Below are positions 2,960 to 43,298 of a DNA stretch of 43,298 nucleotides, piece after piece. This DNA is from Parcubacteria group bacterium GW2011_GWF2_45_11. GTDB lineage: Bacteria; Patescibacteriota; Patescibacteriia; UBA1558; UBA10009. The stretch lies in contig LCKE01000015.1 in the NCBI GenBank assembly GCA_001001205.1, forward strand, positions 1 through 43,298, read 5' to 3'. Both the position numbers and the translations under genes were made by a program. Below the pieces are notes generated by a model. The model saw only the letters and a program-made list of their open reading frames with translations, searched no databases and was not told the DNA's origin. The first letter of the stretch is position 1. Each line of letters begins with the position of its first letter.

Positions 2960-3949
2960 TTACTTAATAAAAGTTGCCTTCATGGCATTACGGTTAAACT
3001 CGTCAATTTGCTTGGAGTTAAAAATTCCCTGATCCACCAAAAACTGCCTTTCCTTGAACAAATTAGTGCGGTACATTTCCGGACCGTCGGTATTAATCGT
3101 CAGTTTAACGCCGTTTTTATAAAGCGTCTGATAAATTTCTTTCATAGCGGCCACGGACTTGATCACGCCACAGCGTAAATTGGAAGTCGGGCAAAGTTCA
3201 AGGACGGTTTTTTGTCTTGCCAGCTCTTTCATCAGATGCTGGTCCTGCCAGGCTAAAAAGCCGTGGCCGATGCGCTCAGGCCTGATCACCTTAACCAAAT
3301 CGCGCATTTCGCGCAAATTGCCCTCTTCGCCTGTATGAATGGTCAAACCCAGACCGGATTTTTTGGCTTGTCTGAACAGGGGATACAGCCGAGTCAGCTT
3401 AAAACCTTGAACCTGCGGTCCGGCGATATCCAGACCGACAATGCCGCGGTTTTTATATTTAAGCGCTTTGGCAAGAATAATCTCATTCTGGGTAAAAGTG
3501 AATTTACGATCCATCATCAAAATCAGGCCGGCCTTAACCTGGGGATATTCTTGAACCGCCCGATCCATGCCCCTGATGGCCGCTAAAATAATATGATCTA
3601 AATCCTTTTCGCCCGAACGGTTCCGGTTCATGGGGTTAAACCTGAGCTCGTGGATGACAATATTGCATTTACGGTAACCGCCGCCGATAACCGATTTGAC
3701 CGACGTTTCCACCGCTTCCGGCGAAGACTGTACCAGCTCGGTCCAATAAAACAAAGCCTTATCTACTTCCGCCACGCTGTTGTAACCTTCGGCCACGTCA
3801 ATGGTAATCAAATCTTCAAAATCCCAGTAATTTTTGGAGGGCAGCCTGATGCCCTGGCTGTGGGCGATTGACCACATAATCGGCGGATCAACGGCCGCAC
3901 CTAAATGATTATGTAATTCAGCCCGGTCGGGCATGTTGATTTTTGGCAT
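2960..3949 (-). CDS. add: adenosine deaminase family amidohydrolase
   Basis: 329 aa. Metal-ligand motifs AELHNHLGA, HTGEEG, RIGHGF and INTDGP are typical of adenosine/AMP deaminases. Confidence 0.85.
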   Translation of the reverse strand: MPKINMPDRAELHNHLGAAVDPPIMWSIAHSQGIRLPSKNYWDFEDLITIDVAEGYNSVAEVDKALFYWTELVQSSPEAVETSVKSVIGGGYRKCNIVIHELRFNPMNRNRSGEKDLDHIILAAIRGMDRAVQEYPQVKAGLILMMDRKFTFTQNEIILAKALKYKNRGIVGLDIAGPQVQGFKLTRLYPLFRQAKKSGLGLTIHTGEEGNLREMRDLVKVIRPERIGHGFLAWQDQHLMKELARQKTVLELCPTSNLRCGVIKSVAAMKEIYQTLYKNGVKLTINTDGPEMYRTNLFKERQFLVDQGIFNSKQIDEFNRNAMKATFIK

Positions 3950-3971
3950 ATAATTCAGTGAATTTAAATTA

Positions 3972-4100
3972 ATCCAGCACCCTTTCTAAAGGGTATTAGA
4001 TCCTTTAGAAAAGAATCTCTGCCAGGTAACCCTGCGGCAAGCCCGGCACCAGAAATTGGTGCTTGGGTAAGACCGCAGGGTATTAGAAAAGGTGCTGGAT
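3972..4100. repeat. 129-nt nested palindromic element, copy 1
   Basis: 16-bp terminal inverted repeat with one mismatch: ATCCAGCACCCTTTCT / AGAAAAGGTGCTGGAT. Inner hairpin is ACCCTGCGG...CCGCAGGGT, and its loop carries a further hairpin CCCGGCACCA...TGGTGCTTGGG. The last 36 nt (4068-4103) are identical to 42986-43021. Confidence 0.75.
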
Positions 4101-4195
4101 AAAAAATTACAGTATTATTATATCATTGTTTTAAAATAAAAACCCCTATTGCCATAAGGGTCCCAAAAATACTTTCAGGACGGTACCACCTTACT

Positions 4196-4237
4196 TACCC
4201 TGAATCAAACGAGCGAAGCGAGTTCTAATTCAGGGTA
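4196..4237. repeat. palindromic hairpin of the ACCCTG...CAGGGT family
   Basis: TACCCTGAAT (22-nt loop containing GAGCGAAGCGAG) ATTCAGGGTA. The stem ends are the same as in the neighbouring hairpins. Confidence 0.6.
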
Positions 4238-4333
4238 TCTTATTTACTGCTATAACGGGCCTGCCCGTCTGGATCTGCTAACCGCCGAAGTTTCAGCGGC
4301 GTTCTGCCAGCCACTCACCGGATGACATGATTT

Positions 4334-4440
4334 CCGGATAATCCTTAAACAAAAGAGGATACGTTTTCAGCAAATGAATTACCCTGCGGCAAGACCGCAG
4401 GGTAAACTGTGGTAATGTATCCTCATTATAAATTATCCGG
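4334..4440. repeat. 107-nt nested palindromic unit
   Basis: Outer stems CCGGATAAT/ATTATCCGG and GAGGATAC/GTATCCTC. Apical hairpin TACCCTGCGG-CAAGA-CCGCAGGGTA lies at 4380-4404. Confidence 0.65.
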
Positions 4441-4465
4441 CAGTGATCGTCAATTAAATTTAGGC

Positions 4466-4876
4466 TCAGCGGCTCCGGGCGTGGGCGTAGGGCGGACTGG
4501 TTAAAACTTCCGGCACGCCGGCCAATATATTACCCGTCACGGCGAAAATCCGGCCTAAGCCCTGAATGGAATTCCGCCAGGTCCCCAAGCATAAAGCATC
4601 AAAATGTTCGCCAACCGCTTCCGCCGCCACGGCCGTATCATACCACATGTTCCGGACGGCCAGACTCAGGCTCGGTGCCGAAGCCCGGATAAAATTATCA
4701 CCGGGTATTTTGGAATTTGCGCTGAGCAAACCATTGAACATCATCAGGGAAAAAATAATCAAACAAGAACCGAGAATATAGGTTCCCCGCAGGAGATATT
4801 CCTGAAAAGCGTCCATGGTGGCCATGAAATCCCTTTTTTTCCTAGGTAAACAAGCCTGGCAATCATTTGTCTGCAT
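4466..4876 (-). CDS. hypothetical membrane protein
   Basis: 136-aa ORF with one hydrophobic segment (ILGSCLIIFSLMMFNGLL). GGAGGAG lies 15 nt upstream of ATG 4876. An internal ATG (MATMDAF) preceded by AAGGGA is an alternative start. Confidence 0.5.
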   Translation of the reverse strand: MQTNDCQACLPRKKRDFMATMDAFQEYLLRGTYILGSCLIIFSLMMFNGLLSANSKIPGDNFIRASAPSLSLAVRNMWYDTAVAAEAVGEHFDALCLGTWRNSIQGLGRIFAVTGNILAGVPEVLTSPPYAHARSR

Positions 4877-28010: not shown

Positions 28011-28492
28011 CCCCGAGCTTACGCTCGGGGTATTAGCCGAACGCAAGCTTCGCTTGTCCAGAGTCCTCTTGCCCCTGCTGCTCAATATATCGCCTAATAA
28101 CCTTCAGACCAGACGCTGTCGGTGCCCCAATAGGCCTCTTTGACGAACGGGAATTTTTGCTTCAATGATTTGGCGGTATTGCTCTTTATTATCCTGACCG
28201 CATTACCCACTGACATCGTGGGAGGAATGGAGACCAAAAGGTGAATATGGTCAAAATCGTGATTAACCGTCTTACAGCTAATTAGTGGGTAATGCTTGTG
28301 AATTTCATCAAGCTTGGTCTCCAAATAGGCAAAAATTCCCTCGTTAAATATCCTCTTTCGATATTTAGTCACTAAAACAAGGTGGTAATCGCAATAGTAG
28401 ACACAATGGCTAAGTCTTGTCACTTCCATACCTTACAGTATGAGGCAAGAGGACTCTGGAATCAACTCCATCCCACGGCCTTACGGCCGGGG
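28011..28492 (-). mobile_element. IS200/IS605-family element (tnpA only), decayed
   Basis: Subterminal hairpins with an identical GTAA loop on the element strand: CCCCGAGC-GTAA-GCTCGGGG (28011-28030) and CCCCGGCC-GTAA-GGCCGTGGG (28472-28492). A 17-bp inverted repeat GGCAAGAGGACTCTGGA (28057-28073 / 28444-28460) brackets tnpA. Confidence 0.75.
28094..28429 (-). pseudogene. tnpA: IS200/IS605 Y1 (HUH) transposase TnpA, C-terminally disrupted
   Basis: HUH motif DHIHLLVSIPP is present. The frame stops after ...VWSEGY. The expected C-terminus VIRRYIEQQGQ..., with the catalytic Tyr, is readable only in another frame (about 28040-28100). About 12 codons (FVSTVG...) are missing. Confidence 0.8.
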
Positions 28493-38116: not shown

Positions 38117-38268
38117 GAATTATTGGGTTAAGGGTTAAGTGTCACCCGCCCGACTCACCGTCGTAACGGGCGGGCACGTTATGGGTTAAGTGATTGTTTA
38201 ATTTTTTGCCGCGCCCCGCTCGCTCCGCTTGCGGCGTCGGGTCTGGGATTATTTGTTTTCTTGATTTT

Positions 38269-38589: not shown

Positions 38590-38662
38590 ACTTTCTATGA
38601 TTTATCCGGCACCCCCTGAAGTATATTTATATAACTTAAGAGTGGTGCTCGGGGCGCTGGCT

Positions 38663-42810: not shown

Positions 42811-42904
42811 TGGCTCCGAGACCTAGAATCGAACTAGGATCGCTGCATTAACAGTGCAGGGTTTCCTGTCTGCCGGCAGGCAGGTACCAATAAACTATCT
42901 CGGA
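42811..42904 (-). tRNA. second tRNA-Asn(GUU)-like gene carrying a 20-nt hairpin insert in the D-loop (function uncertain)
   Basis: TCCGAGA TA GTTT ATTGGTA [CCTGCCTGCCGGCAGACAGG] AAAC C CTGCA CTGTTAA TGCAG CGAT CCTAG TTCGATT CTAGG TCTCGGA G CCA. The cloverleaf is perfect once 42865-42884 is removed. Confidence 0.7.
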
Positions 42905-42908
42905 ATAA

Positions 42909-43018
42909 ATCCAGCGCCCTTTTTTGAGGGTATTCGTAAGCACCACCCTAAAGTTATATAAACTATACTTCAGGGTAGGGTTGGCTAAGACCGCAGGGTA
43001 TTAGAAAAGGTGCTGGAT
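42909..43018. repeat. nested palindromic element, copy 2 (110 nt)
   Basis: Left arm ATCCAGCGCCCTTTTTTGAGGGTATT and right arm GGGTATTAGAAAAGGTGCTGGAT. 42986-43021 is identical to 4068-4103. It starts 4 nt from the 5' end of the interrupted tRNA-Asn. Confidence 0.75.
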
Positions 43019-43298
43019 AAATCTATATTAAGCATCAAAAAACCGACTCTCTTTAAAACTCGGTTGATTTTTTCCTTTCTTGCCTGCCCTGAGCGAAGTC
43101 AAAGGGCTTTCTGGTTTTATTGTTTTCTTGCTTTATGGAAAAATCACCAAGCCTTTAGTCGGTTATTATTATCGTTATTATTGTTGGTGAACTGTCTCAT
43201 ATTCTTAACTTAACAAAAAATCATTGACTAGTCAAATAAATCGCATTGGGACATCTAAAACCTTACTTTACCTTCTCTCATTGGGTCATTTAAAATGT

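Follow-up and report, generated by a model that had tools for sequence, protein, structure and literature searches.

The DNA analysed here (the window, 43,298 nt) is contig C15 of the genome of Parcubacteria group bacterium GW2011_GWF2_45_11 (G000; 1.14 Mb in 69 contigs, 45% G+C, completeness 93%), and our subject is a 0.5-kb block of nested hairpins at 3972-4440. On one side it is flanked by add, coding for adenosine deaminase (2960-3949, minus strand; Pfam A_deaminase, E 6.7e-49), the gene that comes first after the leader described below and is separated by only 4 nt from valS (340-2955, minus; an open reading frame (ORF) of 871 aa with matches to tRNA-synt_1, Anticodon_1 and Val_tRNA-synt_C). 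On the other side lies a 136-aa ORF without an assigned name (4466-4876, minus), whose stop borders the interval 3950-4465. An earlier note, made from the sequence alone, had described the space between the two flanking genes as free of ORFs, and at a cut-off of at least 30 aa 3950-4465 indeed holds none except a frame of 31 aa (4409-4504) that is not credible. We consider it about 80% probable that the block combines one host RNA element, a T-box leader, with three kinds of small palindromic repeat. All of its components belong to known kinds.

Single-strand folding was compared with 200 shuffles per segment. The segment 3972-4100 reached -35.4 kcal/mol (z -8.3) and 4327-4447 reached -27.5 kcal/mol (z -7.2), with none of the 200 shuffles as good in either case, and the hairpin at 4196-4237 had a z of -4.1. 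The very strong predicted folding of two sub-regions and the lack of an ORF would suit a single large structured non-coding RNA gene occupying the whole block, which was one of the two explanations offered in the earlier note. However, we regard such a gene as extremely improbable, given that the parts of the block have histories of their own: G002 and G005, two genomes of related genera, do not have 3972-4100, a strain of the same species lacks 4373-4413, and three orthologues of the leader are without 4196-4237. Only about 210 nt (4139-4351, minus) are conserved between genera, and these match a T-box; the other parts are multi-copy repeats. The second explanation, a family of mobile palindromes, is largely right in that the palindromic units are dispersed repeats and 4373-4413 is filled or empty between near-identical strains, but it does not describe the block as a whole, which is not one entity.

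The T-box leader upstream of add and valS

At gathering score, Rfam matches nothing in the block and only tRNAs in the window, in agreement with the earlier failure to recognise a known RNA there. With a permissive scan, RF00230 (T-box) aligns to 4153-4351 on the minus strand (32 bits, E 2.4e-5, model positions 1-219; E 1e-5 at genome level), which explains part of the block; no Rfam match explains all of it. The leader contains a specifier hairpin (4319-4337, minus) with a GUC codon at 4326-4324 followed by A, and a Stem II region and a IIA/B-like hairpin come after it. It carries the T-box core AAGGUGGUACCG (GGUGGUACCG at 4190-4181, minus) as part of an antiterminator of the form AAGG[UGGUACC]GUCC...GGACCCUU with a bulge of 7 nt, in which AAGG-UGGUACC-GUCC (4194-4179, minus) pairs with GGAC-CCUU, an arrangement kept in four genera. 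A terminator scan found an intrinsic terminator at 4139-4164 (minus; GGGACCCTTAT-GGCA-ATAGGGG, then a T run) that is conserved in G002, G003 and G005. Its 5' arm doubles as the 3' strand of the antiterminator, and as GGGACCCUU is common to both, the two helices are mutually exclusive. Both the GUC codon and the UGGU of the bulge are matched by a tRNA-Val(GAC) of this genome that ends in ACCA.

A promoter-like sequence, TTGACG-17-TATAAT (4425-4453, minus), agrees with the consensus at 11 of 12 positions; as a consensus match only, it could mark the start of the leader transcript near 4418. At the same position G002 has a similar promoter-like TTGACT-17-TAAAAT. The three-tier hairpin previously drawn at 4334-4440 was recovered in part. 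The region 4327-4447 does fold in three tiers, but the outermost, in which a piece of the specifier hairpin (4334-4342) pairs with the spacer of the promoter-like site (4432-4440), is probably fortuitous because this pairing is not kept in the G002 orthologue.

T-box matches below the cut-off occur in 10 of the 11 genomes of the bacterial family (15 matches, all between 23 and 80 bits), and orthologues of this particular leader were found in three related genera (G002, G003 and G005), upstream of valS or add-valS. The loop of the short hairpin reads A(A/G)U(A/C)AUGUC(A/G) across the four leaders, that is, GUC followed by a purine, and the competing terminator is present in all four. The specifier stems covary (CCGGA/UCCGG, CCGGG/CCUGG, CUUUGAG/CUCAAAG). 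When the specified structure was checked on the four-sequence alignment, 90% of alignment cells were paired compared to 18-65% in controls with the partners slid, and four of the seven specifier-stem pairs had changed on both sides, i.e. in a compensatory manner.

Several points weigh against this assignment. The score of 32 bits lies below the Rfam gathering cut-off of 93, and Stem I is without the distal platform, 74 model positions being replaced by 10 nt in the Rfam alignment. Further, an extended -10-like sequence, TGATATAAT (4125-4117, minus), comes just after the terminator and is also kept in G002, where it lies approximately 7 nt from the add ATG. It could act as a separate promoter for a leaderless add transcript escaping T-box control, in which case leader control of add-valS would be weaker. 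On balance, we interpret 4139-4351 (minus) as a valS T-box leader of the short-Stem-I kind that depends on Stem II (PMC7583486). Its parts are evident from sequence, structure and comparison, whereas the regulation itself is inferred from the known working of T-boxes. A transcript from the promoter-like site (4453-4425) would continue into the leader (approximately 4351-4139), where the short Stem I would present GUC in its terminal loop. The UGGU of the bulge would then pair with the ACCA end of uncharged tRNA-Val and stabilise the antiterminator over the terminator (4164-4139), and the competition between these two helices would set the read-through into add-valS.

The leader of G003 is placed directly before valS; in G000, G002 and G005 add lies between leader and valS. 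Compared with the G003 locus (L064), part of the bacterial family has apparently acquired add as an insertion between the T-box leader and valS, which would put a purine-salvage gene under the control of a leader sensing tRNA-Val. No literature on T-boxes in Patescibacteria came up in our literature search. What had been a vague structured block can now be annotated in concrete terms: this bacterium of the Candidate Phyla Radiation has a valS T-box that combines a short Stem I with a transcriptional terminator and scores below the Rfam cut-off.

Rfam aligns a hairpin of 42 nt (4196-4237, minus; TACCCTGAAT...ATTCAGGGTA) to Stem III of the T-box. The orthologous leaders of G002, G003 and G005 are without it and have 18-19 A/U-rich nucleotides at Stem III, and relatives of the hairpin with 85-89% identity occupy unrelated, terminator-like intergenic sites in G006. 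Because it is missing in the orthologues and dispersed in G006, the hairpin at 4196-4237 is a lineage-specific insertion of a dispersed repeat into Stem III. Stem III generally varies in both its stem and its loop (PMC7583486), thus the insert is plausibly tolerated or might even serve as Stem III. An inserted repeat in this position implies that hairpin elements can occupy a predicted riboswitch and that RNA-family models lose score there, and it bears on the tolerance of selfish hairpins in genomes with very little spare DNA.

Palindromic repeats in the block

The hairpin at 4380-4404 is not a free-standing unit of the palindrome family with ATCCAGCACC ends but the end hairpin of an insertion sequence (IS) of the IS200/IS605 type. 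Eight exact copies of its 21-nt core occur in the genome, and seven of these are near contig ends (60-90 nt, one approximately 400 nt), as four left and three right IS ends. These seven run into a common interior that encodes a Y1 transposase (PF01797, 108 bits, HUH motif HYH). The copy in the block is a 41-nt derivative with a single hairpin (4373-4413, minus; ACCACAGTTTA, 21-nt hairpin, TAATTCATT), in which one hairpin is bordered by the outer sequences of the left and right ends. The hairpin and the outer 11 nt (left) and 9 nt (right) are identical to the multi-copy IS ends, and the repeated CATT leaves an uncertainty of 4 nt in the boundaries. The derivative occupies the loop of a host hairpin (4355-4424, minus; GAGGATAC...GTATCCTC, then TTTTGTTT) that looks like a terminator for the 136-aa ORF. 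The stem of this host hairpin is kept in G002 (with a 13-nt loop) and G003, and strain L067 has the same stem with an uninterrupted loop of 15 nt.

Full-length relatives of the IS, with transposases 54-80% identical, are present in other Patescibacteria, Legionella and other lineages, the closest TnpA being that of a Falkowbacteria assembly (L071). Their left end has the hairpin and a second conserved hairpin upstream of tnpA, and at their right end the first of these recurs with unchanged polarity ahead of approximately 9 nt ending in TCATT, TAATT or TGATT. The hairpin loops thus have the same polarity at both IS ends, and there are neither terminal inverted repeats nor a target-site duplication. 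All five left ends come after (A/T)TT, and CATT closes the right end. In IS200/IS605 elements cleavage takes place at the target next to the left end and at the final bases of the right end (PMC6006769), a rule with which these ends agree. A 29-nt hairpin in three of the IS left ends was considered as a possible insertion and rejected, being a conserved part of the left end in full-length relatives. The IS copy at C61:1-434 has lost this hairpin (TTTGAAAACC...GGTTTTCAAA), which the other copies and relatives from other phyla retain upstream of tnpA. Tandem duplication of the first 32 nt of the IS left end, hairpin included, was observed in the Falkowbacteria metagenome-assembled genome (L071:1381-1445). 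The window also has a second, different IS200-type tnpA between tRNA-Trp and tRNA-His (28091-28405, minus; PF01797, 86 bits), interrupted by a TAG stop and with end hairpins of its own, CCCCGGCCGTAAGGCCGTGGG and CCCCGAGCGTAAGCTCGGGG.

For a comparison of strains, we used contigs encoding an identical Add protein. They are 100% identical across the region except at the 41-nt site. Two JGI contigs (L066, L069) contain the 41 nt, and GCA_003528665.1 (L067) has a precise empty site, GAGGATACATT|TGCTG, in which the repeated CATT corresponds to the final 4 nt of the IS right end. Two further assemblies have N scaffold gaps exactly at this position, with CATT on both sides. It weakens this comparison that the polymorphism is seen in assemblies rather than in reads and that the gaps in two of them are uninterpretable. 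A full IS might have been collapsed by assemblers across its two identical 25-nt end hairpins, making the 41-nt form an artefact; other copies of the IS do break the assembly, and the N gaps fall exactly at the site. However, the identical 41-nt junction was obtained in three independent assemblies (this genome and two JGI metagenomes) and a fourth has a clean empty site. Moreover, assemblies usually finish with k-mers longer than a 25-nt repeat, and k-mers spanning the junction should therefore exist in the reads. As three independent assemblies agree, we judge an assembly artefact to be very unlikely.

The solo junction occurs once in this genome, and an exact search of metagenome contigs for the 41-mer and a 30-mer gave no match (near-genome records excluded). 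For this reason we favour, with some reserve, a loss of the IS interior in place between the two identical end hairpins, while a one-hairpin mini-element mobilised in trans seems a less likely origin. By the favoured route, an IS of the IS200/IS605 type (Y1/HUH, single-strand 'peel and paste') would have inserted 3' of CATT into the loop of the host hairpin, and the 41 nt would have been left in this strain after the interior was lost. One nested palindrome of these tiny genomes is thereby linked to a specific transposase family, with natural filled and empty alleles.

Between the T-box terminator and the start codon of add lies a nested palindrome of 129 nt (3972-4100, plus) with the termini ATCCAGCACC...GGTGCTGGAT, here assigned to family A. 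Its architecture was largely as previously described. The terminal inverted repeat is real (arms 3969-3989 and 4083-4103, 21 nt, 90% complementary), and an IS-end-type hairpin inside it (4029-4081, plus) has arms, ACCCTGCGG (4029-4037) and CCGCAGGGT (4073-4081), that are those of the perfect hairpin 4380-4404. The loop CAAGA of this inner hairpin is split by a further hairpin of 26 nt (4042-4067, CCCGGCACC...GGTGCTTGGG), with AAG repeated on both sides. A second copy of 110 nt (42909-43018, plus) adjoins the 5' end of a hairpin-interrupted tRNA-Asn and, as had been noted, shares 36 nt exactly with the first (4068-4103 and 42986-43021); the left arms match at 22 of 26 positions. The interrupted gene, a second tRNA-Asn (42811-42905, minus) in which a palindrome of 20 nt, CCTGCCTGCCGGCAGACAGG, separates the D arm from the anticodon arm, was not called by ARAGORN or Rfam, and the family A copy starts 4 nt from its 5' end. 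At the contig end (approximately 43266-43298; loci L165-L172), the strain assemblies split into two forms after ...AAATAAATC, which points to another structural polymorphism or insertion.

The terminal 10-mer ATCCAGCACC has 32 sites in the 1.14-Mb genome, 25 of them intergenic, against a mean of 1.4 for shuffled motifs, showing that family A is dispersed. There are at least 22 paired copies of 37-171 nt in this genome, in addition to half-sites; all paired copies are intergenic and have the conserved flanks TAA|...|AAA. The basic unit is a 42-nt hairpin made of a 17-bp stem and the loop GAGGGTAT, and larger copies have modules in the loop: AGCACC...GGTGCT, CCCTGAAGT with an A/T-rich loop and ACTTCAGGG, or, in the copy at add, the IS-type hairpin split by the 26-nt hairpin. 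Short direct repeats are often found at the module junctions. The same termini and flanks surround unrelated interiors in G001, G006, G007 and G042. G291, from another family, has approximately 30 copies (64 termini) in discrete forms of 61, approximately 100 and approximately 118 nt, and its flanks vary (TAA|...|TTT, TTT|...|AAA). Copy number between genomes ranges from 0 to approximately 30, and positions are not conserved between genera. At the add locus of G002 and G005, which are without the copy, the terminator is approximately 40-57 nt from the add start compared to 203 nt here, where the 129-nt copy would ride in the add-valS leader transcript.

An all-against-all BLAST of intergenic DNA of G000 gave 145 segments (7.5 kb) that are repeated at least three times and fall into at least eight families, and the genome is unusually repeat-rich for its 1.1 Mb. 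Within the window, the repeats at 38144-38178 and 38601-38653 comprise a member of a GC-rich hairpin family that is abundant, with dozens of genomic copies (ACCCGCCCG...CGGGCGGGC), and a relative of family A that reads ATCCGGCACC-CCCTGAAGT...

Judging from this distribution, family A is probably a non-autonomous element of the REP/REPIN or MITE type. The evidence for its mobility is copy number, distribution and absence in other genera, and a number of observations pull the other way. Strain comparison revealed no presence/absence difference of family A at the add, tRNA-Asn, ychF and glyoxalase loci, all of which are fixed: 3972-4100 is identical in six of six strain assemblies and 42909-43018 is present in all sampled strains, with a 13-nt insertion in the innermost loop in the diverged strain L173. 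Neither a precise empty site nor a target-site duplication nor a cognate transposase was found for family A, which has the terminal inverted repeats of a MITE but no evident direct repeat. Fixed copies, several of which adjoin stop codons, would also be expected of host functional elements such as protein-binding cruciforms, mRNA-stabilising or attenuating stem-loops, or weak terminators, with the 13-nt ends as a binding site that spread by recruitment or recombination. It fits such a role that copies from different genera and families agree in their termini and A/T-rich flanks but not in their interiors, and REPs are known to have been co-opted in this way (PMC6006769). However, family A copies show no orientation bias relative to neighbouring genes (nine in the same direction, six opposite), and the lack of conserved positions between genera, the range in copy number and the nested or truncated copies are typical of selfish repeats. 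A purely host-functional origin is thus unlikely, and co-option and mobility are mutually compatible.

The search for a mobiliser of family A gave no candidate. None of the 13 Y1_Tnp matches in the genome (93% complete assembly) is flanked by ATCCAGCACC termini, and no kilobase-scale autonomous element bounded by family A termini was found in this genome or G291. A RAYT-like gene beside one family A copy of G291 was considered as a common mobiliser and rejected, since it has no homologue here at E 1e-20 or better. G000 does have RAYT-like Y1 genes of 190 and 207 aa (C68:4788-4958 and C69:4232-4561) with their own palindromes on both sides (CACAGGCA...TGCCTGTG and AATAGACCAGGTCT...), an arrangement that is REPtron-like and distinct from family A. 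An origin of ATCCAGCACC from a tRNA 3' end (T-arm and acceptor) was likewise dismissed, as no tRNA of the genome contains it. The occurrence of AAATCCAGCACC throughout the class (94 of 301 genomes) was rejected as a sign of family spread and attributed to chance or a codon effect, because the 18 single- or low-copy sites inspected were apparently coding and had no right end; a true expansion was seen only in G291. Read on the other strand, the family A flanks (xTTT|...GGATTTATT|) resemble the target and right end of the IS, and this likeness makes a Y1-type mobiliser plausible for family A. The termini, being common to distant Patescibacteria, offer a handle for finding it.

Nesting of hairpins and comparison with known systems

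The geometry of hairpins in loops described in the earlier note was encountered repeatedly: a terminator-like loop holds the IS remnant, the IS-type hairpin has a further hairpin in its loop, family A carries modules in its own loop, Stem III contains the dispersed hairpin, and strain L173 shows its 13-nt indel again in a loop. Nested palindromes could also have been made in place by hairpin-primed template switching or replication slippage, to which the short direct repeats (GTAT, AATACCC, AGGGTATTAGA) flanking some inner modules of family A could point instead of insertion. Direct repeats of 3, 4, 7 and 11 nt flank inner modules, the inner hairpins resemble the outer termini (ACCCAGCACC compared to ATCCAGCACC), and the loop indel in L173 would have the same explanation. 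Still, an origin in place as the general cause is improbable, given that the same modules appear in different combinations and free-standing at unrelated loci and that the 41-nt element has ends identical to IS ends and a precise empty site.

If the inner units arrived by insertion, hairpins already in place would receive them in their single-stranded loops or retain them only there. The nested geometry would follow equally from a preference for single-stranded target DNA and from the selective removal of insertions that disrupt stems. We therefore put forward, as a tentative proposal that we ourselves consider doubtful, that small hairpins mobilised by single-strand-specific enzymes of the Y1/HUH type insert preferentially into existing hairpin loops in Patescibacteria, building 'Russian-doll' palindromes and remodelling RNAs. 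If true, the loops of T-box Stem III and of the terminator would have been remodelled here and tRNA loops elsewhere, and inserts could afterwards have been co-opted as functional helices, Stem III of this T-box being an example.

The leader resembles RF00230 T-boxes in its core sequence, the 7-nt bulge UGGUACC, the competing helices, the codon followed by a purine, Stem II and the IIA/B-like hairpin, and in having an aminoacyl-tRNA synthetase gene downstream, although add intervenes before valS. Unlike in canonical members, Stem I is a hairpin of 5-7 bp that presents the codon in the terminal loop, and a distal platform for the tRNA elbow was not seen. A naturally truncated Stem I is known from actinobacterial ileS T-boxes, which are translational (PMC7583486); the leader shares the missing distal platform with this class but differs in ending in an intrinsic terminator. 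It further deviates from known T-boxes in having an inserted dispersed hairpin as Stem III.

The full IS corresponds to IS200/IS605 elements such as IS608 and ISDra2 in its Y1 HUH TnpA of approximately 140 aa and in the subterminal hairpins of the same orientation at both ends, in the lack of terminal inverted repeats and target duplication, and in insertion 3' of a short conserved target with a precise empty site. IS608 has the target TTAC, whereas the target here is (A/T)TT or CATT. To our knowledge, the known PATEs (non-autonomous IS200/IS605 derivatives) are all much larger than the 41-nt copy, in which, unlike in PATEs, a single hairpin serves both ends; its occurrence at one site only suggests that it may be a deletion relic. 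The ends of IS200/IS605, their guide and target tetranucleotides, and REPs have been described before (PMC6006769).

REP, REPIN and BIME elements are mobilised by RAYT (TnpA-REP) transposases (PMC2817692, PMC3116915, PMC6006769). Family A is similar to them as a set of multi-copy, short intergenic palindromes without coding capacity, with inverted doublets that form long hairpins, a mosaic and modular make-up and conserved short flanking nucleotides. It differs in that it has no GTAG or CGTC tag, that no RAYT gene is flanked by family A copies, and that its termini are common to several genera while the interiors differ. The repeats of this block are also set apart from the SDRs of cyanobacteria by other sequences and another phylum, and by a link to an IS200-type transposase, which here concerns one unit only. 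The SDRs of Nostoc and other cyanobacteria, as reportedly described by Elhai et al. in Genome Research in 2008, are very small hairpin repeats that are nested in one another and are said to be inserted into otherwise conserved sequences, RNA genes included.

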